The notes: a model not told the origin generated them from the sequence alone. Shown: positions 23,614-52,052, counted from the first letter of the stretch. The stretch: DNA of 64,000 nt from an uncultured Pseudomonadota bacterium (GCA_903928965.1 CAIYSZ010000028.1:2837-66836), one strand, 5' to 3'. Program-made: numbers and translations.

Positions 23614-25218
23614 TTAAAAATCGTAGACGACTCTAAAGTCTATACGTTGCTGCCCTGGGGCGACGTTGTATTGGCGTGACATGGGGTAGCTCCAGTCGAA
23701 TTCGCCGAGCAGGTGTTTGAACCATTGGGTGCGGAGGCCGGCTCCGACGCTGGATAGCTGTTGGTTGGGTTGGGTGGGGGCGATGGGGGCCATGGTCCAC
23801 AGGTCGGCCCAGTCGACGAAGGCGATGGCGCGCAGGTTTTGGGTGTAGGCGGCGTCGTCGAACAGCAGTTTCGGGCTATGCAGTTCAAAGGATAAATTAA
23901 TGCCTTGGTCGGCCAATACTTGGGTTTGATGATAGCCGCGCACGCTTAAGGGGCCGCCGGCGGAGTATTGTTCGTTGCTGATGAGCCGGTTCAAGCTGCC
24001 TTGGCCCTGGGCGTGAATTTGGAACCGCATGTCTTCGGGCAGGATTTGCAAGTGCCTGAAGTCGCCGGTGAGGTAGACGAAATCCGGAGTCGCGCCGGTG
24101 CGCTTGTTGTTGAATTGGGTGGCGCTGTCGACCAGTCCGCGGATGGAGAAATTCGCAGCCACGTTGAGGGTAGTTGTTCGTTGCTCGGTGCGTAGCGCCC
24201 AATCGTAACCGGTCACAAATTTAAGGTATTGAATGGCGGTGTGGCCGGTGTCTTGACCCTGTAGTTGGGTGGCTTGGTCGAAGCTTTTGTAGTCGATGCC
24301 GAAAGTCAGATTGTTGAGGCCGTCGTTTACCGTCGGCAACGGTTTGACCAGCCGCAGGCCGAAGATGTCGCCGGTACCGACTACCGAGGCGCCGCCGACG
24401 CTGGCGCCAAGCTGGGTGTTGGAGCTGATGCCTACGCCGTAAAACGCCAAGCGGGTGTCGTGCCAATTAGTCGGCATGACATAGGTGCCGGACCAGACGT
24501 CGACTTGATTGGCGTTTTGCGGCGAGGTTTGAAATTGTAATGAGGCGCTATGGTATTTTTGCCACAGGTTGTCGTAGCGCAAGGAGCCGATCAAGCGGGT
24601 GTAATCGGTGCTGCTGGTATTGCGGGTGTTCATTTCCACGCTGCCGTGCAGCGGCAGATCGTCCTTGACTTTAAGTTCCACTTCCATTTGCCCCGGCGTG
24701 GCCCCGGCGCGGAATACCGGAGTAACGCCGCGGTCGGGCGCTTGTTGCGCCAAGGCGGCCATTTGAGTTTGCACGGTGGGCATGTGCGGGGTTTGACCTT
24801 CCGCTAGGGCCGGCACGGCGGCGCGGATTTTGTCCAGATCATAGTAGCGGGAGCCGGTGATGCGCTGGATGGCGATGCGGCCTTCGGTCACTTCGATGCG
24901 CACTTGGTTTTCGTTGACGTCTTGTTCGGGTATGGCGACGATGACGCTGGGATAGCCTGCTTGACGGTAGGCGGTTTCCAGCGCGGCGCGGGCTTGTTCC
25001 ACGTCGTCCACGGTTTTACCCGGTCCGAGAAACGGATATACCGCGCGTTCCAGGGTTTCGTCGTCCAGCAGGGTATTGCCGTCGATTTGAAAATCATACA
25101 GGTCGAAAGCGGGCTTTTCGCCGGCGGCGGCCGGCGGCGTGGCGTCGGCGGCGCGTGCGGCGGACAGGCCGCGGCATAGGGCTAGGACCAAAATCAGAGT
25201 CAGTTTGGCTGAAGTCAT
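23614..25218 (-). CDS. ShlB/FhaC/HecB family two-partner secretion transporter (TpsB)
   Basis: POTRA (IDGNTLL...AYRQAGYP), SVRGY motif, C-terminal beta-barrel ending in F. Confidence 0.9.
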   Translation of the reverse strand: MTSAKLTLILVLALCRGLSAARAADATPPAAAGEKPAFDLYDFQIDGNTLLDDETLERAVYPFLGPGKTVDDVEQARAALETAYRQAGYPSVIVAIPEQDVNENQVRIEVTEGRIAIQRITGSRYYDLDKIRAAVPALAEGQTPHMPTVQTQMAALAQQAPDRGVTPVFRAGATPGQMEVELKVKDDLPLHGSVEMNTRNTSSTDYTRLIGSLRYDNLWQKYHSASLQFQTSPQNANQVDVWSGTYVMPTNWHDTRLAFYGVGISSNTQLGASVGGASVVGTGDIFGLRLVKPLPTVNDGLNNLTFGIDYKSFDQATQLQGQDTGHTAIQYLKFVTGYDWALRTEQRTTTLNVAANFSIRGLVDSATQFNNKRTGATPDFVYLTGDFRHLQILPEDMRFQIHAQGQGSLNRLISNEQYSAGGPLSVRGYHQTQVLADQGINLSFELHSPKLLFDDAAYTQNLRAIAFVDWADLWTMAPIAPTQPNQQLSSVGAGLRTQWFKHLLGEFDWSYPMSRQYNVAPGQQRIDFRVVYDF

Positions 25219-25928
25219 GGCGCGCCCTCGGCTGGCGCGGGCGGTTCGGCGCTGTCGGCCGGGGCGTTTTCCGCGTCGGTTTTGGCTTCCGGCGTCGCTT
25301 GGCTGGCCTGGAACGGGGTGATTTGCAGTTGGTGCAATTGGTAGCGGTAATTTTCGGCTATATTTTGCGTTTCAACTTTGCCTATGCCGGTGAGCGGCTC
25401 CAATTCCAATGCTTGTTGCAACAGGCTTTTGTCGCGGTATTGCCGCACGATGTCTTGGTTCAGCGAGATCAGGCTGTTATTTTGTTCGCTGCATTGGGTA
25501 ATCCATTGTTCGCGTTCCTTGACCGCGGCGACCAGGAGTTGATTGTCGGCGTAAATGGCGTTGGCCTTGGTTACCGTGTCGTTGTGTTTTTGCAATAGTT
25601 TTTGCCGGTTTTCCCGTTCTTGGCCCAGTTGGCTTTCCAGATTGGTTTTTAGAGTCTCCAGGCCGGTTTTGTAACGTTCTACCTCGGCTTGCAAAGGGGC
25701 CAAGGCTTTGACGGCTTCTTCCAGTTGCTTAACCTTGATCTCCAGTTGCAGTTTGTCGTTGCGCAGGCCGTTTCTTTCCGCTTCCAGCGCGGATTTTTCC
25801 TGGCTGAGCTGGCGCACCAGGCCTTGCGCTTTTTTCATGGCCGCGCCGGCGTCGGGGGCTTTGGCGTCGGAAAAAGCCGCGGGCGAAAAGCCGATCAGGC
25901 AAAGAAGGCAATAAGCTTGGGCGCGCAT
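25215..25928 (-). CDS. Periplasmic coiled-coil hypothetical protein
   Basis: Signal peptide and long heptad region; overlaps tpsB by 4 bp. Confidence 0.8.
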   Translation of the reverse strand: MRAQAYCLLCLIGFSPAAFSDAKAPDAGAAMKKAQGLVRQLSQEKSALEAERNGLRNDKLQLEIKVKQLEEAVKALAPLQAEVERYKTGLETLKTNLESQLGQERENRQKLLQKHNDTVTKANAIYADNQLLVAAVKEREQWITQCSEQNNSLISLNQDIVRQYRDKSLLQQALELEPLTGIGKVETQNIAENYRYQLHQLQITPFQASQATPEAKTDAENAPADSAEPPAPAEGAP

Positions 25929-25938
25929 CGGATTCTCT

Positions 25939-27786
25939 TTAGTAGCGGGTGTTCAAGTCCAGGTTCAGGGTGTCGACGGCGTATTTGGGGCCGTCGATGG
26001 CGTCGGAGCTAAACCAGTTCAGGTTGAGCCAGGTGTTTTTCGCCACGCCGTATTGGCCGCCCAAGACCCAACCTTTGGCGTTGGTGCCGCCCAGATGGAA
26101 GATCGAGTCGGTAAACGCGTCTAGCACCGCGTCGCGCTGTATGTAACGGTAGGCGAAGTTGACGCTCCATTGTCCGGAGCGTTGGATTTGCATGGCGCCG
26201 ATATCGAAGCGCAATTGGTAAGCCATGGTGCGCGGGGTAATGCTTTGGTGAAATTCACTTAGGATTTGTTGTTTGTTAAAGCCTAGGTTTTGCGCGTAAT
26301 CGGCGGTGAACATCACATGCTTGTCGCCGAAGGCGGTCCAGTCGTAGATACCGGTGAAGTTCAATATTTTAAAGCCGGAGGCTAGGCCGAACAAGCAGCC
26401 TTTAGGGTCGGAACAAACTTGGCCGCCGCCGGAGTTGCTGTCGGTAATAGCCACCATGGAGTTGCCGCCTTGCAAGAATTGCGGCGCGGTCCAGTCGTTT
26501 TCGTGGCCGTTGCCGTTGGCGCTATTGTAGCGCGCGCTGATGTTTTGGTATTCATAATAGGAGCCGGCGAAGTTGAGCCGCGAGTTCTCGCCGATCAATA
26601 AGTCGGTGCCCAGCTGGCCGGCGTACAGCCATTTGGATTCGCTGGAAAAGTTGACGTTTTGGATCGGGTAGACGCCCAAGGTCAGGAACACGCTGTCCGG
26701 TGATTGCTGGCCTTGGTTGACGCCGTAGCGCGCGGTGGGCAAGGGCGGGCGGTAGCCGAGGATGCGCGCGTCGTTTTGGTTCATGTGGTAGCGGAAGCTG
26801 GTGGTGACGCCCTCGAAGCTCAAGTCCGGGTCGAATACGACGTCGGAAGAGACGAAGGGGTTGATGGTGCGGCCGCCGTAAAAACTAAACCAGTTGACGT
26901 TGTTGGCGTCGTTGTAATCGTATTGGATGAAGGCGCGGTCGATGGCGAATTGATAGCTTTGGCCGGTATTGCCCAAGGTTTGGTCGTTGGATACCGGGCT
27001 GTAGTTATTGCTGGTGGCCAGCCGCACGCCGGTTTTGATGCTGTCGTTGATTTGGGTTTCAAAGCTGAGGCGGAAGCGTTCCCGCAGCAGCATGCCATTT
27101 TTGGTGTTGTTGATATAGGCGTCGGTCAGGTTGCGCGCCAGGGCGTTCTTAAAACCGCCGTCCTGGTTGATTTGCAAATAGTTGAACGGGCCTATGCTGG
27201 GGCCGGTTTGATTGTCGGGAGCGAAGAAGTTGTTGGAGTAGCGCAAACGCATGTCGAAAGTGGGGTTGATGTCGCGCACCCAGTCCGGTAGCGCGCCGGG
27301 TACGCCCCAGCCCTCGTTCTTGGCGTCCTGCTTGACTTCGCTGACGACCTCGCCTTTGAGTTCCTTGCGCAGTTGTTCGCGGATTTCGTTTTTGACGAAT
27401 TCCGGCACATAGCCTACGTGTTTGCTTTTGCCGGCGGCTTCGGCGGCTGCGGAGGCGGCGGGCTTGCCCGCGCCTGTACTCGCGCCGGAGGCTGGATTCG
27501 GCGCGCTAGCGTTGCTGTCGCCGACGTTGGTCCCGCCCGCGCTGCCCGCGCCGGCCTTGGCGGCTGTTTCGGCTTCGGCTTCCGCCGCTTCTTGCTGCGC
27601 GCCGCTGACTAGGCCTTCGCCTTCTTGTTTATTGATGACGCCGCGTTGCACCAGAAGATCGACCAGATTGACGAAGGTGGATTTTTTCACCTTCAGCATT
27701 TCCTCGGCGTGGGCGGGCAGCGCCGCCAAAATTAGGCCGCCGGTTAGCGACAATAGCGTATGGGTAGCGATTCTTGTCATGGTCAA
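25939..27786 (-). CDS. Putative porin family outer-membrane protein
   Basis: Signal peptide; LVDLLVQRGVI, RERFRLSF, PVSNDQTLG, AIDRAFI, DAVLDAFTDSIFHLGGTNAKGW; ends DLNTRY. Confidence 0.85.
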   Translation of the reverse strand: MTMTRIATHTLLSLTGGLILAALPAHAEEMLKVKKSTFVNLVDLLVQRGVINKQEGEGLVSGAQQEAAEAEAETAAKAGAGSAGGTNVGDSNASAPNPASGASTGAGKPAASAAAEAAGKSKHVGYVPEFVKNEIREQLRKELKGEVVSEVKQDAKNEGWGVPGALPDWVRDINPTFDMRLRYSNNFFAPDNQTGPSIGPFNYLQINQDGGFKNALARNLTDAYINNTKNGMLLRERFRLSFETQINDSIKTGVRLATSNNYSPVSNDQTLGNTGQSYQFAIDRAFIQYDYNDANNVNWFSFYGGRTINPFVSSDVVFDPDLSFEGVTTSFRYHMNQNDARILGYRPPLPTARYGVNQGQQSPDSVFLTLGVYPIQNVNFSSESKWLYAGQLGTDLLIGENSRLNFAGSYYEYQNISARYNSANGNGHENDWTAPQFLQGGNSMVAITDSNSGGGQVCSDPKGCLFGLASGFKILNFTGIYDWTAFGDKHVMFTADYAQNLGFNKQQILSEFHQSITPRTMAYQLRFDIGAMQIQRSGQWSVNFAYRYIQRDAVLDAFTDSIFHLGGTNAKGWVLGGQYGVAKNTWLNLNWFSSDAIDGPKYAVDTLNLDLNTRY

Positions 27787-27823
27787 TAGTTGAGTAAGTT
27801 TAATTCCTTTTCACGCCAAGATG

Positions 27824-28495
27824 CTATATCTTGGCGGTTAGCCGCATGCGTATCGGTTGCGGCAAGTTTTCCGGCGGCGTTTTGTCCGCGGGGATTTTTA
27901 AGCGCGCCAATGCCGAGCGCAGCGCTTGGTCCACTTCCGGCTTGCCGCTGCCGGTAGCCAGTTCGGCGCGGCTGATTTGGCCGTTGGCGTCCATCCAGAC
28001 GTCTATGATGGCGGTATAGCCGAATTTCATGGCCGCCGTGTCCGCCAGTAGCGGTTGGATGGCATCTTCGATTTGGCGCTTGACGTGGCCGCCATACCAG
28101 ATGACGGCGTTGCCGCCGCCGCCGCCCAACAGCGAGTGGCCGCCCTTCCGCGCGGCCAGGCCGAAACTGTCCGAGCCGGCCCCGCCTTCCGCGTCCAGGC
28201 CTAGTTCTTCCGCCGGCGGTTCGTTGCTCTCATCCGGCGTCGGTTCGGGCTCCGGCTCCGGTTCGGGCGTTTGCTCCTCCACTTTTTCCTGTTCCGGCTC
28301 CGGTTCCGGCGGCTTGACCTCGGGCGGCGGAGGCGGCGGCGGTTGCAGCATGGTGATTTGTTGCGCCACTTTCTTGGTTTGCGGCGCTTTTTCACTATGA
28401 CTGATCAAATAGGCCACTACGCCGACGATGATCAGCGTCAAAAAGACTCCAATCAGCGCCGGCAGGCGGCGCAGCCATTTAGTTTTTTGTTCCAT
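27824..28495 (-). CDS. TonB/TolA-like energy transducer (TonB C-terminal domain)
   Basis: Single TM anchor, PPPPPP/EPEPEP linker, GSGKPEVDQALRSAL C-terminal domain. Confidence 0.85.
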   Translation of the reverse strand: MEQKTKWLRRLPALIGVFLTLIIVGVVAYLISHSEKAPQTKKVAQQITMLQPPPPPPPEVKPPEPEPEQEKVEEQTPEPEPEPEPTPDESNEPPAEELGLDAEGGAGSDSFGLAARKGGHSLLGGGGGNAVIWYGGHVKRQIEDAIQPLLADTAAMKFGYTAIIDVWMDANGQISRAELATGSGKPEVDQALRSALARLKIPADKTPPENLPQPIRMRLTAKI

Positions 28496-28507
28496 GGGCT
28501 TGTGCGC

Positions 28508-28912
28508 TTACTTAACCAGTTTTTGCGTTACCAAGCCGAGTTGGGAGATTTGCAAGCGGGTGACGATGTCCAGCACTTCTATGACTTTTTGGTATTGCAC
28601 GCTGGCGTCGGCTTTAACCACCACTGGCAGATCGGGTATCGCGGCTTTGTATTGCGCCAGGCGCGTCTCCAGCTCCGTTAGGGTCACCGGATAAGTGTCC
28701 AGGTATATCGTGCCGTCGGGCGTGATGGAGATGGCCTTGGTTTTCGGTTTGGCCAGCGAAGGAGTGCTGCTGGCCTTGGGCAGATTGACGGTAATGCCTT
28801 GTACGGTGGCGGTGGTCATGATGATGAAGATCAACAGCAACACATAGGCCACGTCCAGCATCGGCGTGATGTTGATATCGTCATAGACTTTCTCTTCGGA
28901 TTCGACTTTCAT
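28508..28912 (-). CDS. exbD: ExbD/TolR family protein
   Basis: INITPMLDVAYVLLLIF, VNLPKA, VKADASVQYQKVIEVLD. Confidence 0.9.
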   Translation of the reverse strand: MKVESEEKVYDDINITPMLDVAYVLLLIFIIMTTATVQGITVNLPKASSTPSLAKPKTKAISITPDGTIYLDTYPVTLTELETRLAQYKAAIPDLPVVVKADASVQYQKVIEVLDIVTRLQISQLGLVTQKLVK

Positions 28913-28918
28913 GTTTGA

Positions 28919-30739
28919 TTAATCTCTTTTGCCATTGCCATTGATATATTTGGCGGCGGTGCGCATGGACAGCAAGGCCAGGAATTCGTCCGAGAACACG
29001 CGCATGCCGGCGGTGATGTCCTTGATTTGCGTCAGCAGGTAGTTGTAGGAGAACAGCGCCGGAATAGCCACCGCTAACCCGGCCACGGTGGCCAGCAAGG
29101 CGGCGGCGATGCCGGGCGCGATGGAGTTGATGTTGACGTCGCCGGTGGCGGCGATGGCGGCGAAAGTGATCATAACTCCGACCACGGTGCCGAGCAGGCC
29201 GAGAAACGGGCCGCCGGCGATGGCGATGGTCAGCAACACCATGTTTTTGTTCAGGCGTTGGCTTTCGAGCACGATTTGCGAGTCCAATTTGACGTGCAGG
29301 TAATTCCACGCCTCGGCGGTGATCGGGCTGTCCACGCCGCCTTGCAGTTGTTTCATTTCGTGTATCGCGGTGTGATATAGGTGGTACAAGGTCGAGCTTT
29401 GGAAGTGATCGTGCCTGCCGACCAGGGCGGTGAGGAACTCGGAATCGGACAGTTCCCGCTCCTCGGCGTCTTCTTCTTGATCCAGATCGCCTAAATGACT
29501 GTGGTCCAGTTCGCGGTAGCGGGCCAGAAATAATTTATTGTCCTTGACGATGCGGTTGATGACGATGGTTTTAGTAACCATGACCAGCACCGCGATCACC
29601 AGCATGATGCCGGTGAGGCCGATGATCACCCAGCCGTCGATGGTGACGTTGTGTACGATGACCATGAAATGGCTGTCGCTGCTGGCATTGGTTTCATCCT
29701 CGCCGAAATTCAATACCGCGAAATCCGGGCTTTGGCTGCGGTAGGCCAGCTTCAGCCAGTCTGGGCCGCGGGCGGCGGAGGCAATTTGCACTTCGTCCAA
29801 AAGTCCGGCGAAGTTGGCTCCGATTTCGATTTTGGGGTTGGCGCTGGTCAAATGGATGGCGGTTTGACCAACCGGCGCGCCGTCGAGATAGAGGGTCAGC
29901 CGGTCGGCGGCGGCGGTTAGTGCAACATGCCGCCAAGCGCCGGGGGTTAGCGCGACAGGCGCGGTCTGCTCTCCGTCCCAGCTTGCTTGCAGATTAAGCC
30001 CTTGCAGGGTCAGCGACAGAGTATGCGCGCCGTCGCCGGCGCGCAAAATTTGCGCGGCGGATTGCGCTTGCTCCACCCGCAACCACGCGCTGAAGGTCCA
30101 GCCTTTGTCTGGGGCTAGCGCCAATTGCGGGGCCGGGTTGACGATCACGCCGGCTCCGTTGTTGAATTGCAGCGCCGCGCCTATCCAGCCGCCGGGCGTG
30201 ACTTGCGCGTCGGAACTCGCGGCGTGACTGGCGTAGGCGGTGGCGTCTTGCGGGACGATTTCTCCGTCCTTAAAGTGGTAAACCAGCCCTTGCGCTACGT
30301 CGTACAGGCTTTTGCCGTCCGAGGCGTCGGCGGCATTGGCGTTGCCGTAATACATCCAGAAGCTGTTGGTGTCCGTACCGCCTTGCACTTGTGTTTGTTT
30401 GACCCATACGAAACCGATTTCGTTAATGGCGTCGATGTGTTCGATTTGAAAGGCCAGCGGCGTTTTGTCGTCCTTGAGAAACCGGATGTCGGCCCCGTTT
30501 TCGGCCAGTTCAGCGAAATAACCGAAATTACCGGCATGCAGGCGGATCAGAAGCGGAAAATCGGCGAGCGAGCCCTGGATGTCCGCGCCGGTGGCCGACG
30601 CATCCAAATTGATTTGCCGGCGCGAGCTCCATTCGCCGTTCCACCATGCTTGGGCGTTTAACGAGGTTAATAGCGCGCACAAGCCTATCAGGGAAACCGC
30701 TAGGCGTTTGCAATGGGTATTAGCGTCGATTATTTTCAC
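28919..30739 (-). CDS. exbB: DUF2341 + LamG + ExbB/MotA proton-channel fusion
   Basis: WWNGEWSSRR, LIRLHAGNF...GADIRF (DUF2341), LamG-like middle region, LTIAIAGGPFLGLLGTVVGVMITF...GIAAALLATVAGLAVAIPA. Confidence 0.9.
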   Translation of the reverse strand: MKIIDANTHCKRLAVSLIGLCALLTSLNAQAWWNGEWSSRRQINLDASATGADIQGSLADFPLLIRLHAGNFGYFAELAENGADIRFLKDDKTPLAFQIEHIDAINEIGFVWVKQTQVQGGTDTNSFWMYYGNANAADASDGKSLYDVAQGLVYHFKDGEIVPQDATAYASHAASSDAQVTPGGWIGAALQFNNGAGVIVNPAPQLALAPDKGWTFSAWLRVEQAQSAAQILRAGDGAHTLSLTLQGLNLQASWDGEQTAPVALTPGAWRHVALTAAADRLTLYLDGAPVGQTAIHLTSANPKIEIGANFAGLLDEVQIASAARGPDWLKLAYRSQSPDFAVLNFGEDETNASSDSHFMVIVHNVTIDGWVIIGLTGIMLVIAVLVMVTKTIVINRIVKDNKLFLARYRELDHSHLGDLDQEEDAEERELSDSEFLTALVGRHDHFQSSTLYHLYHTAIHEMKQLQGGVDSPITAEAWNYLHVKLDSQIVLESQRLNKNMVLLTIAIAGGPFLGLLGTVVGVMITFAAIAATGDVNINSIAPGIAAALLATVAGLAVAIPALFSYNYLLTQIKDITAGMRVFSDEFLALLSMRTAAKYINGNGKRD

Positions 30740-30801: not shown

Positions 30802-30817
30802 AGCAATAGTTATGCCA
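30802..30817 (-). promoter_or_regulatory. Sigma-54 -24/-12 promoter for the exbB...tpsB operon
   Basis: Minus strand TGGCATAACTATTGCT. Confidence 0.8.
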
Positions 30818-30856: not shown

Positions 30857-30915
30857 TGTTGATTGGATGTTGATATATCAGCATGTTGTGTTGATTAGGT
30901 GTTGATATTTGAGCA
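30857..30915. promoter_or_regulatory. Tandem enhancer (UAS) sites
   Basis: TGTTGATT-GGA-TGTTGATATATCAGCA (30857-30883) and TGTTGATT-AGG-TGTTGATATTTGAGCA (30889-30915). Confidence 0.7.
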
Positions 30916-41721: not shown

Positions 41722-41767
41722 AAAATAAAAAAGCGTCGGCATACCCTAGGCAGGGTAATGTCGACGC
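41722..41767 (-). terminator. Intrinsic terminator
   Basis: Minus strand GCGTCG-ACAT-TACCCT-GCCT-AGGGTA-TGC-CGACGC followed by TTTTTTATTTT. Confidence 0.8.
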
Positions 41768-41888
41768 ATTTTGTCTTTCCATTTGTCTTTCCATGTTCCT
41801 GTGCGGCCACTCCTTTGAGGTTTCCCTTTGGCCTGTTCCTGCAACATCCCTGTTTTAAGTCGTCCGTTACTTGATTTTGTCCAATGTT

Positions 41889-42092
41889 TGCGCCGTTCCG
41901 TTAAAACTCCGTTTCTGGCGTATCCTGCCACCTCCGTTGTAGGGGCCAGTCACTTGACCCTGCCGCTTACCCTGCGTGTGCGCCGTTCCGTTGAAAGTCC
42001 GTTTCTGGCGATTCCAGCCACTTCCGTTGTGGGGGCCAGTCACTTGACCCTGCCGCTTACCCTGCGTGTGCGCCGTTCCGTTGAATATCCGT
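41889..42092. repeat. 90-bp tandem repeat, about 2.3 copies
   Basis: Unit begins TGCGCCGTTCCGTT at 41889, 41979 and 42069. Confidence 0.95.
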
Positions 42093-42226
42093 ATTCGGCA
42101 ATTCCCGTCACATCCCTGATGGAGCCTGTCCTAGACTCGGTTGCTTCCTGCTTACGCCTAATGGTTTATCCTTGGCAAAGCACATCCTTGTGCGGTAATC
42201 CTTTAGTTAAACCGATTCAAACGAGA

Positions 42227-44022: not shown

Positions 44023-44922
44023 TTAGGCTTTAGTGCGTGAAGATTTGCGGCTCAAGCCCAGAGCGCCGCACAAACCGGACAAGAACAACCAAACGCCGGC
44101 GGGAACCGGAACCGAGCTTGCGCCAACCGGGTTATAGGTCAAAACGTCATTAGCGTTTAGGCTGAAGGTGCCCAATTTGCTAACAATGTTGGTGTCCGCG
44201 CCGTCGCCCAGCAGACCGTTTTGGTTGGTGACGAAGTAGAACGGAACCGAGTTAGCGCCGATGGTGCCTTCATAGGGAAACAAGGCAGAGTAAGCGAACG
44301 CGCCAGTGCCAGCCGCCGGAGCCAATACTTCGTTGCTGACGGCGTTCAACTTGGTCAAGCTGACGTTGGTCGCCGAAATGGCGCCGCCCACGGAGTCGGT
44401 GTTGACCGAAGCTTGTTCGTTTAAGCCGGCCCAACCGGCTAAGTTACCAGACCAAACGGCGGTGCTTTGCTCGGTGGCAACCACGCCCCAAGGCGCTACC
44501 GCGGTTAAAGGATAGCCGCCGGCGACATCATTCAGGTTGGTCAAAGTGTTTTGATCCAATACTGAAGCGCCGACCACGGACCAACTCAAGTGCGCGAGGT
44601 CGCCAGCAATGCTGTTGAAGTCAGCATAGTTGCTCAAGTTCCAGCTCAAGGTGGAGCTTGTGCCTTGGGTGCCGTTGACGAAGCTGGAGTAAGTCAAGCC
44701 GCTGTGGTCCAGGGACAAATCCAACAGAAAGGTTTTACCAAAGTTGGCGGAACCATTTAACTGGTCGTTAACCGCCAACAAGATGGAAGAACCCGCGCCA
44801 TTGTTGATTGGGGTTTGTTGCGACGAATCCGATGGATCGTAAGTCAGGGTTAACGCCGCGTTGGCGCTGCCCGCGACTAACGCCAGCGCAATCGCCGCGG
44901 ATAGCTTGTGAATATTTTTCAT
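44023..44922 (-). CDS. Secreted protein with VPxPA/PEP-CTERM-like C-terminal sorting signal
   Basis: Signal peptide ending ANA; C-terminus VPVPAGVWLFLSGLCGALGLSRKSSRTKA. Confidence 0.88.
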   Translation of the reverse strand: MKNIHKLSAAIALALVAGSANAALTLTYDPSDSSQQTPINNGAGSSILLAVNDQLNGSANFGKTFLLDLSLDHSGLTYSSFVNGTQGTSSTLSWNLSNYADFNSIAGDLAHLSWSVVGASVLDQNTLTNLNDVAGGYPLTAVAPWGVVATEQSTAVWSGNLAGWAGLNEQASVNTDSVGGAISATNVSLTKLNAVSNEVLAPAAGTGAFAYSALFPYEGTIGANSVPFYFVTNQNGLLGDGADTNIVSKLGTFSLNANDVLTYNPVGASSVPVPAGVWLFLSGLCGALGLSRKSSRTKA

Positions 44923-44994: not shown

Positions 44995-45010
44995 GGCAAT
45001 AAATGTGCCA
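44995..45010 (-). promoter_or_regulatory. Sigma-54 promoter for the two surface-protein genes, with adjacent IHF-like site
   Basis: Minus strand TGGCACATTTATTGCC; AATCAATAATTTA (IHF consensus WATCAAN4TTR) at 45016-45028. Confidence 0.85.
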
Positions 45011-45082
45011 TGTTTTAAATTATTGATTTATAATTTAAATATCTTGTCCTGAAATAGAATGTGTTTTTTGGGAAACAGTTTA

Positions 45083-45109
45083 TGTTGATTTGCTGTTGAT
45101 ATTTCAGCA
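45083..45109. promoter_or_regulatory. Enhancer (UAS) site
   Basis: TGTTGATT-TGC-TGTTGATATTTCAGCA. Confidence 0.7.
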
Positions 45110-45253: not shown

Positions 45254-45469
45254 TCAAAGGATATATTGGTCTTGCTGCGATTTTTCTTGATTTGATTCGT
45301 TAGGTTTTTTGCCTTGGTTAAATCGAAAGCGTTCCCGTTTATCTATTTGTACGATGCGGCCTTCATGCACCACAATTTCCAACGAACCGAAACGGATGTT
45401 TTTTAAAAAACCAATAATTTGAGTTATGGTCTCTTGGTATTCATCGCCATTGGGTAGATTTTGTTCCAT
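45254..45469 (-). CDS. YezD/DUF2292 (OscA-like) small protein
   Basis: FGSLEIVVHEGRIVQIDKRERFRF; this family is typically linked to sulfur-starvation loci. Confidence 0.85.
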   Translation of the reverse strand: MEQNLPNGDEYQETITQIIGFLKNIRFGSLEIVVHEGRIVQIDKRERFRFNQGKKPNESNQEKSQQDQYIL

Positions 45470-45562
45470 ACTGCGCCTATGTTTGCGGCAGTTAGCCGCT
45501 TTTGGTTTTCATTGGATAAAGGAGGGGCGTCCTAAGTTACGATCGTTTCTTTTCTTTAGTAA

Positions 45563-45578
45563 AGCAGTCTTTGTGCCA
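45563..45578 (-). promoter_or_regulatory. Sigma-54 promoter for the oscA-like gene
   Basis: Minus strand TGGCACAAAGACTGCT; degenerate UAS TGCTGATT-AGG-TGTTGAATTTTGGTCA at 45650-45676. Confidence 0.8.
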
Positions 45579-45776
45579 TTTTTATTTATTTGAAATATAA
45601 GGTAAATTTTTCGCATTTACCCTTGCGGTGCTGGGCTTTAAGCAGTTTCTGCTGATTAGGTGTTGAATTTTGGTCAGCGGGCTGTAGAGAAGTTAGCGTT
45701 TAATTTTGATGCCTAAACGTAAAAAAAATCCGGCTTGCGCCGGATGCCCGAAGCGGGAAGGAGACAACACAAAAAA

Positions 45777-46712
45777 TTAGTGTTTGGCCGTGACGCCGCC
45801 GGCATGCGCCGGGTAAACGGCCGAGTTTATTTGCCGGGTCGGGCTAGGATTTTTTTTTACCGGCTCGGATTGCGAATCATGGTGTTGTTGGCCGTCATGT
45901 TTAGGTTCATCGTATTGCACGAATTGGAAACCGTGGCGGCGCGCCAATTCAATGTGTCTTGTCGGGTTGGCGTTGAATAATACGCCTTGACCGCCTAGGG
46001 CGAGCCCGAAGCGGGCGAATTCTTGCGCCTGCTCCTCGAATTCATCGCCTCGTTGTTCATGGTCCGGGGCTTGCAGGCCGATGAAATCGGCGGCGGCGCG
46101 GTTGATGAAGGTTTGCGAGGTTTTGTCCAGGCTGCCCGCCGTGAACTTTAGCGCCAGGCGGTAGCCGCGGCGTTGGTAGTTTTCCAAGCCTTTCAGCAGA
46201 ATGGGGTAAAGCCGTAAATAGTCTTGGTCCACCGTGAGTACGATGACGATATTGCCGGTGTGCAGGCCGCATTTGTGGATGATTTCTTCAAAGTACGCGC
46301 CGTGATCGGATTTTACGCCGAGTATGTGCCGGGGGTCGACATCCAGAAACAGTAATTCCTCTAGGTGGGCTTGCGGCAGAAAATTCAGCATGTGTACGGT
46401 GCGGGCCAACCGGTCAAAGTCTATGACTGATTGGTATGGCGGATTGCCGCCGATATCGCCGGCCAAAGGCGAGTTTTCGGCCAATAGCGGCGGAAGTTGT
46501 TCCTCGCTGACATTCACGGTTAGTTGGGCGTAGCTGCCGACAGTTATTTCTAGCGCGTCGACGCAGCGGACCGGTTTCAGGCGGCTGCCGATGCGTAGCG
46601 GCCCGAATAGCGCTTGCGCCGCGCCGTCTTGCAGAGTAAAGGCGCGCGAGGTGTTTTTATGTTCTTGTTCCAAACGGTCGTTGAAATATTCGACCAGTTG
46701 TTGTAATGGCAT
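45777..46712 (-). CDS. Degenerate EAL-domain-like protein
   Basis: FDRLARTVHMLNF, LFLDVDPRH, YQRRGYRLAL.F: EAL-fold features without the EAL motif. Confidence 0.65.
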   Translation of the reverse strand: MPLQQLVEYFNDRLEQEHKNTSRAFTLQDGAAQALFGPLRIGSRLKPVRCVDALEITVGSYAQLTVNVSEEQLPPLLAENSPLAGDIGGNPPYQSVIDFDRLARTVHMLNFLPQAHLEELLFLDVDPRHILGVKSDHGAYFEEIIHKCGLHTGNIVIVLTVDQDYLRLYPILLKGLENYQRRGYRLALKFTAGSLDKTSQTFINRAAADFIGLQAPDHEQRGDEFEEQAQEFARFGLALGGQGVLFNANPTRHIELARRHGFQFVQYDEPKHDGQQHHDSQSEPVKKNPSPTRQINSAVYPAHAGGVTAKH

Positions 46713-47262
46713 TCATGGCTCCGGAATGGCTCGAATGTTGGATAAAAAAAGTCGGCGGGAGCGAGTTCCCGCCGAACAACGTCCCTGTTTAACAGCCATA
46801 AGTTGCAAGCTTTAAGGTCAGACTAAGACAGCTAATTAAGCCGCGGGTATAGAGTAAGCGTTTATTAATATTTTTAAAAACGATATAAATAGATTTATAT
46901 ATCTCTTTTTTGAAAAATCCTTAAATTTCAAATACTCGGCATGGATTGGGCCATAGGCTTTTGATTGTGTATATCAAAAAATGTGATATATTTATCTAAT
47001 TTTATAATAAATAATGTTTTTAATGACTTAGGTGATATTTTTGCTTGACATGGATTGAGCTAAACTGTTACTGTAATAAAAAAACAAGCTGACCGGACTT
47101 CCGGAAGCCGTGCCTTTTGGCAAAGCGGAATTCTGAAATCATGTGTGGATAATCTATAAGGAAACAGATTATGAAGCTTGAATTAAAACTTGTAGTTTTT
47201 ATTTATTTTGTCGAAGTTTATTTTTCAATGGTTGCGAGCGGCCGCGCCGCCGAGGCGGCGCA

Positions 47263-48162
47263 ATGACGACGCAAAACCAGGAACCTTGGCGTATCGATTT
47301 TTTGGTCAGTGAATTGCGCCGCTTGCGCTTGACCTCCCTGGAAGCTCGGCAACGCCGCGACCATCCGCCGAAATTGCCCTCGCGTAAGGCATTGACGCAA
47401 ATTGTAGACGATTTGGCGGCGGCTTTGTTTCCCAATCGCTTGGGTCAGCCGGATATCAGCCCGGAAGAGGTGGATTATTTTGTCGGCAATACCTTGGCCT
47501 CGGTGTTAAGACGCTTGAGCCGGCAAATCGCCTTGGAGTTGCAATTTAATGCCGAGCAAAACCAGCAGGTTTTGGACGCGCATGTGGAGGCGTTGGCGCT
47601 GACGCAGCAATTCGCCGCCGGTTTGCCGGATATCCGCGCCTTAATCGATACCGACATCAAAGCCGCGTTTGAGGGCGATCCGGCGGCGCGCAGCATTGAC
47701 GAGGTACTGGTTTGCTATCCCGGCGTCAACGCTATGATGCATCAACGCATCGCGCATCGTTTGTACCGCTTTGGCGCGCATTTGTCCGCGCGCATGATCG
47801 CCGAGATTGCGCATTCAGCCACTGGTATTGACATTCATCCCGGCGCTGAAATCGGCGAGAGTTTTTTTATTGATCACGGCACCGGCGTGGTGATTGGGGA
47901 AACCGCGGTCATTGGGCGGCGGGTGCGTATCTACCAAGCGGTGACTCTGGGCGCCAAACGTTTCGATAAGGACGAGCAGGGGATTCTAGTGAAGGGTAAC
48001 GCCCGGCATCCGATAGTCGAGGACGACGTGGTGATTTATGCCGGCGCAACTATTTTAGGCCGCATCGTGATCGGCCAGGGTTCGGTTATAGGCGGTAACG
48101 TCTGGTTGACGCATAGCGTGCCGCCGGGCAGTCAAGTCACGCAAGCGCATGTGCGCAGCTAG
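47263..48162 (+). CDS. cysE: Serine O-acetyltransferase (CysE/EpsC type)
   Basis: GDPAARS..EVLVCYPG, TGIDIHPGA.IG..FFIDHGTGVVIGET, IYQAVTLGA, RHPIVED. Confidence 0.93.
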   Translation: MTTQNQEPWRIDFLVSELRRLRLTSLEARQRRDHPPKLPSRKALTQIVDDLAAALFPNRLGQPDISPEEVDYFVGNTLASVLRRLSRQIALELQFNAEQNQQVLDAHVEALALTQQFAAGLPDIRALIDTDIKAAFEGDPAARSIDEVLVCYPGVNAMMHQRIAHRLYRFGAHLSARMIAEIAHSATGIDIHPGAEIGESFFIDHGTGVVIGETAVIGRRVRIYQAVTLGAKRFDKDEQGILVKGNARHPIVEDDVVIYAGATILGRIVIGQGSVIGGNVWLTHSVPPGSQVTQAHVRS

Positions 48163-48276
48163 TGTTGCAGGAGGGGTGAAATCTTAGCATTTCGCGTTTG
48201 AACGGCCGGCCGCGGCGTTTTCCTTTCCGCATCCGGTTTTTACATTATCTTTTATTCATAATTATAGGTAACCAAA

Positions 48277-49194
48277 ATGTCAGACATACATCAAGCTCAT
48301 ACCGCGTTAGGCGACGTCGCGGCGCGTACATTATCCAACGCTACTAAAACCGTGCCTATGATGGGGGCCATCACCCCGCGTTGGTTGGTGCATTTGTTGC
48401 AATGGGTGCCGGTTGAAGCCGGTATTTACCGGGTGAACAAAGTCAAAAGCGAAACCAGCATCGCGGTTGATTGTTCCAGTCTGGACGAGAAAGTGCTGCC
48501 GCAAACTTATGTGGATTACGAGGAATGGGGCCGCGAGTACCGCTTGAACGCGGTGAACACGGTGTTGGACGTGCATACTCGGGTAGCGGATTTGTACAGC
48601 AGCCCGCATAACCAAATTCACGAACAATTGCGCTTGACCATCGAAACCGTGAAAGAGCGTCAAGAAAGCGAGTTGATTAATAATGCCGAATACGGTTTGT
48701 TGAACAATGTTTCGCAAAGCCAAAAAGTGTCCACTCGCTCCGGCGCGCCGACTCCGGATGATTTGGACGAGTTGATTTCATTGGTGTGGAAAGAACCGGG
48801 TTTTTTCTTGGCGCATCCTAAAGCCATCGCCGCTTTCGGCCGCGAGGCCACTTGGCGCGGCACCCCGCCTCCGACTGTTAGCTTGTTCGGTTCGCAATTT
48901 TTGACCTGGCGCGGTTTGCCGTTGATTCCGACCGACAAATTGAAAATCGAAAACGGCAAGACCAATATCATTTTGCTGCGCACCGGCGAAAGTCGGCAAG
49001 GGGTGGTCGGTCTGTATCAACCGAATTTGACCGATGAGGTGCACATGGGCTTGTCGGTGCGGTTTATGGGCATTAACCATAAGGCCATCGCTTCTTATTT
49101 GGTGTCTTTGTACTGTTCCTTGGCGGTGTTGACCGAGGATGCCCTGGGCGTACTCGAAAATGTTGATGTAGGCCAATACCATGAGTATAAATAA
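48277..49194 (+). CDS. Family 2A encapsulin shell protein (SrpI-like)
   Basis: TALGDVAARTLSNATKTVPMMGAITPRWLVHLLQWVPVEAGIYRVN, PTPDDLDEL, GLSVRFMGI, ASYLVSLYCSLAVL; 305 aa, between cysE and a desulfurase. Confidence 0.92.
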   Translation: MSDIHQAHTALGDVAARTLSNATKTVPMMGAITPRWLVHLLQWVPVEAGIYRVNKVKSETSIAVDCSSLDEKVLPQTYVDYEEWGREYRLNAVNTVLDVHTRVADLYSSPHNQIHEQLRLTIETVKERQESELINNAEYGLLNNVSQSQKVSTRSGAPTPDDLDELISLVWKEPGFFLAHPKAIAAFGREATWRGTPPPTVSLFGSQFLTWRGLPLIPTDKLKIENGKTNIILLRTGESRQGVVGLYQPNLTDEVHMGLSVRFMGINHKAIASYLVSLYCSLAVLTEDALGVLENVDVGQYHEYK

Positions 49195-50785
49195 TCAAAC
49201 CTTGGAAAAATTGGCCGGTTTGGCCATGAGCGGAAGTTCGCCTTCCGCCGGCTTGCCGGACGCCGGTTTGCTGCGGCAATGGGCTAGCCAGTTGTTCGCG
49301 GCGATGCCGAACCAGTCGGCTTCGCTGGAGCCGGTGCAATACGCTCCGCAATTGAGCGGGGCAGGATTGCCTGCCTTGCCTGGCGTGGATTCCGGAGCGT
49401 TGTCTGCGTTGGCGCGGCGTTCGTTCACTAACCCGAACGACATTGGTTTGGCCCCGTGGCCGGTTCCGAGCGCCGGGTCCGGGGAGAGCGCCGCGCCGGT
49501 TAATTATTATTTCGTTAGCGAGTTGGCCAAGCATGCCGCGGACCCTTCATTGGCTCCGGCGGAGTTTGACGTGCAACGGGTGCGCCGCGATTTTCCGATC
49601 TTGCAGGAACGGGTGAACGGTTATCCGTTGGCTTGGCTGGATAATGCGGCCACCACGCAGAAACCGCTGGCGGTGATAGACCGGATCTCGGAGTTTTATA
49701 AACACGAGAATTCAAATATTCACCGCGCGGCGCATGAGTTGGCGGCTCGCGCTACTGATGCCTATGAACACGCGCGGGATGTGGTGGCGCGGTTTTTGAA
49801 CGCGTCGTCCAGCAACGAAATTATTTTCGTGCGCGGTTCGACCGAAGGCATCAATCTGGTCGCGAAGAGTTGGGGCAAGCAAAATATCGGCGCCGGCGAC
49901 GAGATCGTGATCAGTTGGCTGGAGCATCATGCCAATATCGTGCCTTGGCAGCAGTTAGCCGCCGAAACCGGCGCGGTGTTGCGAGTGATCCCGGTGGACG
50001 ATCACGGTCAGGTTATTCTGGCTGAGTTTCAAAAACTGTTGAATCCGCGTACCAAGCTGGTGTCGTTCACGCATGTTTCAAATGCCCTGGGCACCATTAC
50101 TCCGGCGCATGAGATGATTGAGATGGCGCACCGCGCCGGGGCCAGGGTATTGCTGGACGCTGCGCAATCAGTGTCGCATATCCGGGTGGACGTGCAAAGC
50201 TTGAATCCCGATTGGCTGGTGTTTTCCGGGCATAAAATCTTCGGTCCCACCGGTATTGGCGTGGTTTACGGTAAATTCGACTTGTTGGAGGAGACTCAAC
50301 CCTGGCAAGGCGGCGGCAATATGATAGAGGACGTGACTTTCGAGCATACCCGTTATCAACCGGCGCCGGCTAAATTTGAGGCGGGCACCGGCAATATCGC
50401 CGACGCGGTGGGACTGGGCGCGGCTCTGGAGTATTTGAGCGGTTTAGGCATCGAGCGGGTGGCGTATTACGAGCATGAGTTGCTGCACTATGGCACGCAC
50501 GTGCTGCAAGGCATTCCCGGCGTGCGCTTGATCGGCACCGCGCCGGATAAAACCAGCGTGCTGTCGTTCGTGTTGGCGGGTTATAGTCCGTTGGAGGTCG
50601 GTACGGCGTTGAATGAGGCAGGCATAGCGGTGCGCGCCGGTCATCATTGCGCGCAACCGATTCTGCGCCGCTTTGGGTTGGAGAGCACGGTGCGTCCGTC
50701 GCTGGCTTTCTATAACACCTACGAGGAAATCGACCGTTTGGGCGGCGTGATTAAACGCTTGCAGTGCCAAAAACGGTATTTTTAG
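49181..50785 (+). CDS. Encapsulin cargo cysteine desulfurase (SufS type) with N-terminal extension
   Basis: About 125-aa Pro/Ala/Ser-rich N-terminus, then FDVQRVRRDFPIL, WLDNAATTQKP, FSGHK (PLP Lys), RAGHHCAQP. Confidence 0.93.
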   Translation: MSINNQTLEKLAGLAMSGSSPSAGLPDAGLLRQWASQLFAAMPNQSASLEPVQYAPQLSGAGLPALPGVDSGALSALARRSFTNPNDIGLAPWPVPSAGSGESAAPVNYYFVSELAKHAADPSLAPAEFDVQRVRRDFPILQERVNGYPLAWLDNAATTQKPLAVIDRISEFYKHENSNIHRAAHELAARATDAYEHARDVVARFLNASSSNEIIFVRGSTEGINLVAKSWGKQNIGAGDEIVISWLEHHANIVPWQQLAAETGAVLRVIPVDDHGQVILAEFQKLLNPRTKLVSFTHVSNALGTITPAHEMIEMAHRAGARVLLDAAQSVSHIRVDVQSLNPDWLVFSGHKIFGPTGIGVVYGKFDLLEETQPWQGGGNMIEDVTFEHTRYQPAPAKFEAGTGNIADAVGLGAALEYLSGLGIERVAYYEHELLHYGTHVLQGIPGVRLIGTAPDKTSVLSFVLAGYSPLEVGTALNEAGIAVRAGHHCAQPILRRFGLESTVRPSLAFYNTYEEIDRLGGVIKRLQCQKRYF

Positions 50786-50795
50786 TAGTGTTGGC

Positions 50796-51848
50796 CTAGC
50801 CGGCTTTTTGTCCGCTCGGCAGCATGCCGTAACGTGCGAGTTTATGTCTCAGCACGTTACGGCTGATGTCGAGCAGGCGCGCGGTGTGCACCTGGTTTTC
50901 CTCGCAGAATTCGTAGGCGGTGCGGATGACGGTTTCTTCTATGATTTCGTAAAGTTTGGGCGGCCCTTGTTCGCACAGGCGTTGCAAGGCGCTTTCCAAT
51001 GAGGTGGTGGATACCATGGGCGCGCTGCTGCCATGGATTCTGACCCCGGACAGTTTGAAATCTTCAGGCCGTAGCCGGTTGCCCGGGCAGACCAGCAAGG
51101 CCCTATGCACGGCGTTTTCCAATTCGCGGATGTTGCCGGGCCAGTCGTAATTCAATAATACCAGTTCGGTGGCGGGGGAGAGTTTGATGTCGTTATATCC
51201 TAGCCGGTCGCCGTAGATTTTCAAAAAATGTTGCGTCAGGGGCAGGATGTCGCCGGGTCGGTCGCGTAGCGGCGACAGCTGCAGGGCGGCGACGTTGAAG
51301 CGGTAATACAAGTCGGCGCGAAAATGCGAGGCGGCCACCGCTTCTTCCAGGTTGACGTTGGTGGCGGCGATGATGCGCACGTCCACCGGCACCGGGGTGC
51401 GGGAGCCGACCTTGACCACTTCACGTTCTTGCAGCACTCTGAGCAGCTTGACTTGCAAGCCCAGCGGCAGGTCGCCGACTTCGTCTAGAAACAGGCTGCC
51501 TTTGTTGGCGTTTTCAAACCAGCCGATCTTGGTGGCCAGCGCGCCGGTGAAAGCGCCTTTTTCGTGGCCGAACAGTTCGCTTTCTATCAGGTTTTCGCTC
51601 AAGGCGGCGCAGTTGAGCGCGCCGAAAGTGTTGTTGTTGCGCTTGCTCAAGGCGTGAATGTGCCGGGCTACCAGTTCCTTGCCGGTGCCGGTTTCACCGA
51701 TGATTAACACGGTGGCGTCGCTGGGGGCGATGCGCTCAATTTGCTCCAGCAAGCGGCGGGAGACGGGATCTTCAAATACCAGAGCCGAGGCGCGCACGGA
51801 GAGTGAGAGCGACCGCGATTCCAGTTCGTCGAATGTCAGTAAGGTCAT
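50796..51848 (-). CDS. Sigma-54-dependent Fis-family activator lacking an N-terminal sensor (SfnR-like)
   Basis: [38 protein letters not shown]-terminal HTH; only about 20 aa precede the AAA domain. Confidence 0.92.
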
Positions 51849-51936
51849 GGCTTAGCTCGGCTGTTAGGTTTTGGCGCCTTAGTCATCTGGATGTCCGGCG
51901 GGCTAATAATCGTGTTTTAGTTTGCATTATTTTGCA

Positions 51937-51952
51937 TGCATTATTTGCGCCA
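51937..51952 (-). promoter_or_regulatory. Sigma-54 promoter of the activator gene
   Basis: Minus strand TGGCGCAAATAATGCA. Confidence 0.75.
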
Positions 51953-52003
51953 TGTTGGCAAGGTGTTAATATTAAAACATTTATTGTTTGTAAGTCAAAT
52001 AAA

Positions 52004-52052
52004 TGTTGATATATCAACAGCAATTTGCTGATTGTGTGTTTATATATCAGCA
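52004..52052. promoter_or_regulatory. Tandem enhancer (UAS) sites
   Basis: Perfect palindrome TGTTGATATATCAACA (52004-52019) and TGCTGATT-GTG-TGTTTATATATCAGCA (52026-52052). Confidence 0.75.

Follow-up and report, generated by a model that had tools for sequence, protein, structure and literature searches.

We analyzed a 64,000-nucleotide stretch of DNA (the window) from an uncultured Pseudomonadota bacterium (GCA_903928965.1 CAIYSZ010000028.1:2837-66836), focusing on a block of genes at positions 23614-52052. The host is a methanotroph. The best single explanation of this block, to which we assign a probability of about one half, is a sulfur-limitation regulon that deploys a surface oxyanion-capture machine composed of two exported proteins (S299 and S577), a two-partner secretion (TPS) system and a TonB-type motor with a porin. 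The reading draws on the regulon and its conservation among relatives, the families and folds of its products, the sulfur-free composition of its exported members, and genomic and cis-regulatory links to cys and encapsulin genes; from these we infer which signal induces the regulon, which ligand is captured, and what the TpsA fiber, the TonB motor and the porin do. Searches covered the organism's own 3.25-Mb assembly (C-numbered contigs), 24 genomes of its genus (G-numbered) and 67 S577-bearing loci obtained by scanning GTDB species genomes with an S577 alignment; sequence loci carry L numbers.

Sigma-54 promoters, a shared enhancer and links to sulfur genes

Four -24/-12 promoters, all on the minus strand, precede transcription units of the block. 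They lie at 30803-30817 (TGGCATaactaTTGC) ahead of the exbB operon (23614-30739), at 44996-45010 (TGGCACatttaTTGC) ahead of the S299-S577 operon (S299, 44023-44922; S577, 42227-43960; both minus), at 45564-45578 (TGGCACaaagaCTGC) ahead of a yezD gene (45254-45469, minus) and at 51938-51952 (TGGCGCaaataATGC) ahead of a gene for a sigma-54 activator (50796-51848, minus). TGGCA-N7-TGC is exact at the first three, and an rpoN gene is present in the assembly. By itself the -24/-12 pattern is not above chance, with 3 matches in the window versus 3.7 expected.

The evidence for a shared regulon comes from an enhancer whose core, TCAACAnnnAATCAACA, occurs seven times in the window against 0.35 expected, a count reached by none of 100 shuffles; five of these seven matches fall 50-100 bp upstream of the four promoters. 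The full consensus is a 27-bp unit, TGCTGAWATATCAACAnnnAATCARCA, with an internal near-palindrome, situated about 85 bp upstream of each promoter. Two units serve the exbB operon (30857-30883 and 30889-30915), one each the S299-S577 operon (45083-45109) and yezD (45650-45676), and the activator gene carries a perfect palindrome, TGTTGATATATCAACA (52004-52019), together with one 27-bp unit (52004-52052 overall), all on the minus strand. Across the assembly, 5 of 10 loose matches to a 17-mer form of the enhancer and 7 of 8 matches to its palindromic part lie inside the window, and when sigma-54-like promoters were ranked by upstream half-sites, exbB came first, the activator second and S299 within the top three. 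This enrichment and near-uniqueness bear out the preliminary description of the block, which had proposed four sigma-54 promoters sharing an enhancer. One more perfect 17-mer, accompanied by a sigma-54 promoter (TGGCACacaaaATGC), lies at C96:26722, ahead of a gene for a secreted protein of 535 residues without Cys or Met (C96:24937-26738, minus; L001:8938-10739), which constitutes a fifth regulon member.

The arrangement is conserved. The 67 loci span Methylomonas, Methylobacter, Methylovulum, Methylomicrobium, Methylomagnum, Methylocucumis and Nitrosomonas, and in about 30 of them, from several genera, a sigma-54 promoter with the same half-sites or 17-mer-like element precedes S577, S299 or tpsB; S299 homologues are preceded in this way in L033, L054, L063, L077 and L087. 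Exact enhancer copies in relatives stand ahead of the activator (G006, G015), exbB (G021) and S299/S577 (G021, G015).

The activator (350 aa; Sigma54_activat, 233 bits) consists of an AAA+ domain at residues 24-189 with GAFTGA at 98 and a C-terminal, Fis-type helix-turn-helix domain (HTH_8, 303-340), with no N-terminal regulatory domain. This is the architecture of SfnR-type activators and agrees with its earlier designation as sensor-less; since a sensory domain is absent, control must act on expression of the activator itself, and its own enhancer copies make positive autoregulation probable. A literature search for an SfnR binding-site consensus yielded nothing usable. Within the genus, 14 of the 24 genomes have an orthologue with 80-88% identity, and in 11 of the 67 loci the activator gene neighbors an S577 gene in divergent orientation. 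A paralogue with 56% identity, truncated by the contig end, terminates the 8-kb contig C66 (35-8210), which also encodes an SsuD with 65% identity to its E. coli counterpart, an SfnG-like monooxygenase, a flavin mononucleotide reductase and two acyl-CoA-dehydrogenase-like proteins, and all proteins of this ssu/sfn cluster are sulfur-poor. Encapsulin is present in 13 of the 14 activator-bearing genomes versus 4-5 of the 10 activator-less ones, and no more than 10 kb separates the activator and encapsulin genes in seven genomes; in an eighth the distance is 22 kb.

Within the block itself, a plus-strand operon comprises cysE (an EpsC/cysE-type serine acetyltransferase by NCBIfam; 47263-48162), a family 2A encapsulin shell gene (48277-49194; encap_f2a 524 bits, cut-off 380) and an encapsulin-cargo cysteine desulfurase gene (49181-50785; 854 bits, cut-off 800), confirming the cysE-encapsulin-desulfurase operon described earlier. 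Shell and cargo genes overlap by 14 bp, and the cargo carries an Ala/Pro/Ser/Gly-rich N-terminal extension of about 125 residues, as expected of a family 2A encapsulin with desulfurase cargo. In both S. elongatus and A. baumannii, sulfur starvation turns on operons of this family (PMC8049743, PMC10836720). Upstream of cysE lie a sigma-70-like promoter (TTGACA at 47041) and a leader with a hairpin (GCUGACCGGAcuuCCGGAAGCC; region 47041-47130, plus), the leader proper occupying 47088-47130 and lacking a U-run. A 31-codon open reading frame (MKLELKLVVFIYFVEVYFSMVASGRAAEAAQ; 47171-47266, plus) with a good ribosome-binding site also precedes cysE, its stop overlapping the cysE start (ATGA), and may encode a leader peptide.

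The leader recurs in relatives as GCUGACCGGAnnnCCGGAAGCCAG, followed by a hairpin and U-run forming a terminator. It stands ahead of CysK-cysE-encapsulin-desulfurase operons in L028 (1143), L044 (842), L050 (17090, minus) and L087 (3606), is also located in L003, L006, L010, L011 and L012, and in G006, G013, G015, G016 and G023 separates the activator gene from its sigma-54 promoter. A pattern search of 41 genomes placed exact copies in three settings only: ahead of cysK/cysE, immediately ahead of the encapsulin gene, and ahead of the activator gene. Compensatory substitutions occur in the terminator stem while the 5′ portion does not vary, and Rfam holds no family for the leader. We regard the leader as a possible new riboswitch or attenuator that would respond to sulfur status. 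Because it is common to the activator and to cys/encapsulin genes, it offers a plausible external input for the sensor-less activator, one shared with cysteine synthesis. In L028, the entire CysK-cysE-encapsulin-desulfurase operon is itself preceded by the enhancer and a sigma-54 promoter. Across the 67 loci, encapsulin, CysK or rhodanese genes are recurrent neighbors of the module, and window-type modules of other genera often stand beside encapsulin or rhodanese genes.

The fold of S577 and its molybdate-linked homologues

The AlphaFold2 model of S577 (mean predicted local distance difference test score, pLDDT, 87.7; 56-sequence alignment) is predicted to adopt a type II binding-protein fold, and its best 32 Foldseek matches in the PDB are all PstS/DING phosphate-binding proteins (E down to 3e-7). 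Pfam, a profile search of PDB sequences and hhalign against E. coli PstS gave no reliable sequence relation to PstS, and S577 lacks both PstS/DING family membership and the characteristic Ser/Thr loops GATF, GSSGG and RxxGSGT. At the corresponding positions it reads GGAAQ, GAAGYG and RNxGAA, the correspondence being a tentative sequence-pattern alignment. Conserved motifs among homologues are SGGAAQD, KRSxGAAGYGV, SDGGFxGVD, RNxGAA and RYVKIDG..N..G.Y..W.E, together with three invariant Arg. An argument that loss of PstS Asp56 indicates sulfate was dropped, D189 being the probable Asp56 equivalent (45 of the 56 aligned sequences have D here and 11 have N). The most fitting description of S577 is that of a predicted PstS-fold oxyanion binder with a remodeled pocket, whose ligand cannot be called from sequence.

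Genomic context adds a second candidate ligand. In five loci (L070, L071, L074, L076, L086) an S577 homologue is embedded between mop and modA in a modE-mop-[S577]-modABC operon adjoining nif genes (nifV, flavodoxin, glutaredoxin), and in six others (L044, L048, L052, L069, L072, L078) it neighbors a ModE, ModC, Mop or Oxidored_molyb gene; modA and modC score above the NCBIfam equivalog cut-offs. Maximum-likelihood analysis recovered a well-supported clade of 12 proteins including the window S577, which with the near outlier L080 gives 13 window-type proteins (S299-S577-tpsA), and a second clade of 48 containing mod-linked, activator-linked and S577-tpsB-tpsA types. Among cultured strains, Methylomonas aurea SURF-1 and M. 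subterranea SURF-2 have the window-type arrangement, Methylovulum miyakonense HT12 has one activator-linked and one TPS-linked copy, and Methylomicrobium lacus is a further carrier. A ligand-specificity switch between sulfur-linked and mod-linked clades was considered and found no support, since only 1 of 108 jointly conserved positions differs. Because S577 combines the predicted PstS/DING fold with conserved positions shared with the modE-mop-modABC-embedded homologues, a molybdate-type oxyanion is as plausible a ligand as a sulfur compound.

These homologues raise the alternative that the whole block is a molybdate, tungstate or vanadate acquisition regulon, in which S577 binds a group 5/6 metal oxyanion that the TPS/TonB/porin module carries across the outer membrane; the cys, rhodanese and desulfurase links would then reflect sulfur for molybdenum-cofactor synthesis or sulfate-molybdate antagonism. 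PstS-type pockets accommodate vanadate, binding-site residues are identical between the mod-linked and window clades, and the regulon includes a vanadium-haloperoxidase-like enzyme, all of which fit this alternative, as do the mod operons. We nevertheless consider it unlikely. None of the 13 window-type proteins lies beside mod genes, whereas 7 of the 13 have encapsulin or rhodanese neighbors; the sigma-54 promoter and enhancer arrangement is absent from the copies embedded in mod operons; the activator's leader is shared with cysK/cysE/encapsulin operons and not with mod genes; the activator paralogue resides in the ssu/sfn cluster; and metal-oxyanion uptake leaves the sulfur-free composition of the exported proteins unexplained.

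Sulfur-free exported proteins and a haloperoxidase-like member

S577 contains no Cys and only its initiator Met. S299 contains its initiator Met and one Cys, which lies inside the C-terminal VPxP-CTERM sorting helix, so that the protein is sulfur-free after removal of signal peptide and sorting helix. The claim that two secreted proteins lack Cys and Met therefore holds with these small qualifications. For comparison, the genome median Cys+Met content is 2.4% in secreted-like proteins and 2.9% in the rest. Every one of the 15 block genes ranks under the 30th percentile of the genome, versus the 68th for the neighboring acyltransferase gene, and positive controls for sulfur sparing are similarly poor (Sbp, 0.32%; ssu/sfn proteins, 0-1.4%). 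The window module contains 0.86% Cys+Met versus 1.49% in a paralogous module on contig C36 (Fisher p = 0.026 for Cys and 0.008 for Met). Among S577 homologues, nearly all of 106, down to 33% identity, contain 0-1 Cys/Met, and the 13 window-type proteins contain none.

The fifth regulon member shows the same property, zero Cys/Met being found in 106 of 120 of its homologues. Its PDB matches are exclusively vanadium haloperoxidases, and alignment to 1IDU/1VNC shows KX6RP, SGH and SRX5HX3D intact, so that all vanadate-site residues are kept; NCBI names its homologues vanadium-dependent haloperoxidases. By its motifs the protein may be such an enzyme, a role as a PAP2 phosphatase being equally possible. 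That a single enhancer should serve two unrelated exported families which have both lost their sulfur amino acids is unlikely to be coincidence; either sulfur sparing or resistance to hypohalous acid could account for it.

The second of these causes defines an alternative in which the surface is hardened against oxidants: the haloperoxidase would generate hypohalous acid for antagonism or oxidative chemistry, and exported proteins would shed Cys and Met as the residues attacked first. The near-complete absence of sulfur from S577 (over more than 100 homologues) and from the haloperoxidase-like protein accords with this, as does the only moderate depletion of the outer- and inner-membrane parts of the module. 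The alternative is nonetheless improbable. The haloperoxidase-like gene was found in only 2 of the 40 related genomes searched (intact in G015, a fragment in G017), in contrast to the widespread S577, activator and enhancer; TpsA, the largest exported protein, keeps 18 Met and 4 Cys; the cytoplasmic block genes are sulfur-poor too; and the C96 enzyme could equally be a PAP2-type phosphatase.

The surface module and its proposed function

All genes named in the preliminary description, including the DUF2341-exbB-exbD-tonB-porin-coiled coil-tpsB operon, were recovered with Pfam and NCBIfam. The operon is tightly packed (gene gaps of -4 to 37 bp) and encodes, all on the minus strand, DUF2341-LamG-ExbB (28919-30739), ExbD (28508-28912), TonB (TonB_2; 27824-28495), a Porin_5 protein (562 bits; 25939-27786), a coiled-coil protein with a weak DUF3450 match (25215-25928) and TpsB (POTRA_2 and ShlB, 60 bits each; 23614-25218). 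TpsA, an exoprotein of 3532 residues (TPS 65.5 bits, DUF3739 101 bits), is encoded separately at 30953-41551 (minus). The TPS domain in TpsA and the POTRA domain and ShlB/FhaC barrel in TpsB identify a two-partner (type Vb) secretion system. TonB-dependent uptake of the classical type is not indicated: alongside ExbB, ExbD and TonB_2 the search turned up no TonB-dependent receptor domain, and the only outer-membrane partners in the exbB operon are the Porin_5 protein and TpsB. As late as 2025, DUF2341-ExbB proteins figured among those without an assigned function (PMC12505986). The spacer between S577 and tpsA (41722-42226, minus) is, as read from the sequence, GGA-rich with tandem repeats of roughly 60-90 bp, and is possibly a CsrA/RsmA-binding leader of tpsA.

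S299 bears an exosortase-type sorting signal with a weak match to the NCBIfam VPLPA-CTERM model; the VP[LV]P..WLF..RR tail is present in 11 of 11 homologues, and about 29 proteins in the organism's own genome carry such a signal. Its AlphaFold2 model is poor (pLDDT 59.6), too low for a fold search.

The module has further editions in the same genome. C36:8352-30482 is a complete paralogous module of nine genes in nearly the same order (S299-like, S577-like, TpsB, TpsA of 4041 aa, DUF2341-ExbB, ExbD, TonB, Porin_5 and coiled coil). It is without the enhancer; its upstream region contains a Pho-box-like TTGTCATcaagTTGTAAC, a weak call, and a GGA-rich leader, and its S577 paralogue has a PstS-like VRRAAGSGSQ loop where S577 reads RNNGAAVG. 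A genome-wide Pho-box scan with the E. coli consensus was uninformative, and phosphate control of this paralogue is a guess. A third S299-like/S577-like pair, at C114:59498-72496, is divergent from a gene for a TpsA-like protein of 3367 residues. Among the 67 loci, tpsB and/or tpsA lies downstream of S577 in most of those with enough 3′ sequence, tpsA in 33 of 67. A sulfur-poor PKD-domain protein of about 440 residues regularly follows S577 in S577-tpsB-tpsA loci (L037, L047, L052, L056, L058, L074, L084). Because S299 and S577 are fixed in the module across loci, they are better seen as machine components than as a replacement surface coat; the proposal that sulfur-free proteins replace the surface layer gives way to their role as constant members of a nine-gene module with two further paralogues in the same genome.

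The architecture has a precedent. The P. aeruginosa pdtA-phdA-pdtB-exbB2-exbD2-tonB4-PA0696(porin)-PA0697 locus is similar, induced by phosphate starvation in a PhoB/sigma-VreI-dependent manner, and its function is uncharacterized (PMC7035377). DUF2341 and Porin_5 had no match in 14 control genomes, P. aeruginosa not being established among these 14. A phosphate-starvation module of the PdtA/PdtB-ExbB2-ExbD2-TonB4-PA0696 kind, with S577 as a DING/PstS-type phosphate scavenger, is very improbable here: the predicted fold, the P. aeruginosa parallel, the PAP2-superfamily enzyme in the regulon and the loop and Pho-box-like site of the C36 paralogue favor it, but the window module is driven by sigma-54 and an SfnR-like activator with no evident Pho box, the Ser/Thr anion ligands of PstS are Ala in S577, no pst or pho genes figure among recurrent neighbors in the 67 loci, the C36 Pho-box call is weak, and the likeness to P. 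aeruginosa is known from described architecture only.

A number of observations weigh against sulfur limitation as the governing signal. Scanning the organism's own genome detected no enhancer at sbp, cysA or ssu, and neither an enhancer nor a sigma-54 promoter was found at its encapsulin operon, which the preliminary description had counted in the regulon; in this genome the operon instead has the sigma-70-like promoter and leader. The own-genome activator gene is without the leader, and yezD lies beside the module in 0 of 67 loci. No sulfate- or molybdate-binding protein appears among the 32 best structural matches of S577; all structural relatives bind phosphate and not sulfate, and the analogous P. 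aeruginosa locus responds to phosphate (PMC7035377). S577 homologues lie in or beside mod operons in about 14 loci, 107 of 108 jointly conserved positions are identical between the window and mod-linked clades, and the closest activator orthologue among related loci (87%, L052) adjoins mop-modC-S577. The S577 paralogues also contain a single Met each, which tempers the sulfur-sparing argument, PEP-CTERM-type and other secreted proteins of this genome are sulfur-poor anyway, and the haloperoxidase-like member supplies another reason for avoiding Cys and Met.

On balance, the idea of a sulfur-limitation programme retains the activator paralogue on C66, the shared leader, the encapsulin, CysK and rhodanese neighbors and the sulfur depletion in its favor, with the mod-operon homologues and the enhancer-less encapsulin operon on the other side. 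The expected co-occurrence of such clusters with SfnR-like, oscA and encapsulin genes and with the upstream activating sequence is likewise partial, extending to the enhancer, the activator and, among window-type loci, encapsulin or rhodanese genes, but not to YezD.

Within the sulfur-limitation reading, the following sequence of events can be proposed. The activator would bind the 27-bp enhancer (near-palindrome TGYTGA-WATA-TCAACA followed by one more half-site, the third), located some 85 bp ahead of the -24/-12 promoters. It would be made when a sulfur-status signal permits, in sister species via read-through of the leader, and would then amplify itself through its own enhancer in a positive feedback, turning on S299-S577, exbB-exbD-tonB-porin-coiled coil-tpsB, yezD and the haloperoxidase-like gene on C96. 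Sulfur limitation is the most likely trigger of the programme, which would run alongside cysteine synthesis and the sulfur-storing encapsulin. More speculatively, S299 might be anchored at the surface by exosortase, S577 might bind a tetrahedral oxyanion, the TpsA fiber might display or concentrate both, and the DUF2341-ExbB/ExbD/TonB motor, drawing on proton-motive force, might energize passage through the Porin_5 channel with its coiled-coil partner. Exported proteins, being non-recoverable, would be built without Cys and Met to spare sulfur. For the module as a whole, scavenging an oxyanion is a likelier role than replacing the surface, and its ligand may be a molybdate-type anion.

A broader generalization, put forward tentatively and with considerable doubt, is that Methylococcales and some Nitrosomonas possess an undescribed class of surface nutrient-harvesting machine in paralogous editions under SfnR-like/sigma-54, ModE and possibly PhoB control, the sulfur edition being sulfur-free and its activator gated in sister species by a hitherto undescribed riboswitch-like leader found elsewhere only at the cysK-cysE-encapsulin operon. 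Such a machine would comprise an exosortase-anchored protein, a PstS-fold oxyanion binder, a TpsA fiber, a DUF2341-ExbB/ExbD/TonB motor and a Porin_5 channel.

Some remaining features of the block deserve mention. The gene described earlier as oscA/YezD encodes a 71-residue member of DUF2292/YezD (Pfam 57 bits, cut-off 22) but falls short of the NCBIfam OscA equivalog (43 bits, cut-off 85). Between yezD and cysE, an orphan gene (45777-46712, minus) encodes a 311-residue protein with no family or structure match in Pfam, NCBIfam or PDB; one homologue (42% identity) adjoins S577 and the encapsulin operon in L050. Just upstream of this gene lies a strong terminator-like hairpin with a U-run (46752-46775, minus) that no same-strand gene precedes and that may point to a small transcript running divergently from the cysE promoter; an Rfam scan of the block matched only a tRNA. 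A gene for a CcdB toxin (98 bits) and, upstream of it, a small partner (22252-22823, minus) stand at the left edge of the block.

If the proposal is true, it would give a physiological role to DUF2341-ExbB/TonB/Porin_5/TPS gene sets, uncharacterized so far even in the virulence-linked P. aeruginosa analogue, and would describe a TonB-type motor operating without a classical TonB-dependent receptor. Two unrelated exported families nearly free of Cys and Met over more than 100 homologues each represent an unusually clean case of either elemental sparing or oxidative hardening. The leader before cys/encapsulin operons and the activator, as a candidate sulfur-status attenuator, could explain the control of family 2A encapsulins. 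Acquisition of nutrients such as S, Mo and V by methanotrophs and ammonia oxidizers, moreover, limits freshwater methane and ammonia oxidation.

Comparison with known systems places each component in context. Like the vanadium haloperoxidases (C. inaequalis VCPO, Zobellia VIPO, NapH3), the C96 protein keeps all vanadate/phosphate-site residues and shares their size, helical-bundle architecture and PF22778 domain; unlike them, it is sulfur-free and, judging by its promoter, probably sigma-54 dependent. Sulfur-sparing isoforms are known from cyanobacterial phycobiliproteins and from the sulfate-starvation-induced proteins of E. coli and Pseudomonas. The block proteins resemble these in being depleted of Cys and Met, as are the sulfate-binding protein and ssu gene products of the same genome, but the two unrelated exported families of the regulon differ in that their depletion is total and conserved over more than 100 homologues.

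S577 is predicted to share the two-lobed type II fold of PstS/DING proteins, conserves Arg and Asp at positions plausibly matching the PstS anion site and, like DING proteins, is exported. It departs from PstS in having no detectable sequence similarity, about 250 extra residues, Ala in place of the Ser/Thr ligands and three invariant Arg, and from PstS/DING proteins generally in lacking a linked ATP-binding cassette permease and in having homologues in molybdate, not phosphate, operons.

Compared by described architecture only, the block resembles the P. aeruginosa Pdt locus in combining a giant TpsA and TpsB with ExbB, ExbD and TonB proteins of their own and a putative porin. The Pdt genes are co-induced by nutrient starvation and their molecular function is still unassigned (PMC7035377). 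Whereas that locus depends on PhoB and an extracytoplasmic function sigma factor under phosphate limitation, the promoters of the block are of the sigma-54 type, and the S299/S577 pair is not reported for the Pdt locus. As in other family 2A systems (SrpI; A. baumannii), the shell, cargo and serine acetyltransferase score at or above curated cut-offs, and the links to rhodanese and CysK in relatives recall known operon types; the operon itself is ordinary, and what goes beyond known systems is the conserved leader/terminator and the linkage to the activator and module.

SfnR of Pseudomonas putida/fluorescens is a sigma-54 activator of dimethylsulfone and methanesulfonate utilization, expressed under CysB control. 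The activator of the block is, by its predicted domains, likewise an NtrC-family protein without an N-terminal sensory domain, with a GAFTGA-containing sigma-54 interaction domain and a Fis-type helix-turn-helix, and its paralogue sits inside the ssu/sfn cluster of the same genome. Unlike SfnR, which controls monooxygenases, it targets the TPS/TonB/porin module and exported proteins and apparently regulates itself, and in sister species its gating would be the task of a leader/terminator, not of a recognizable CysB site.

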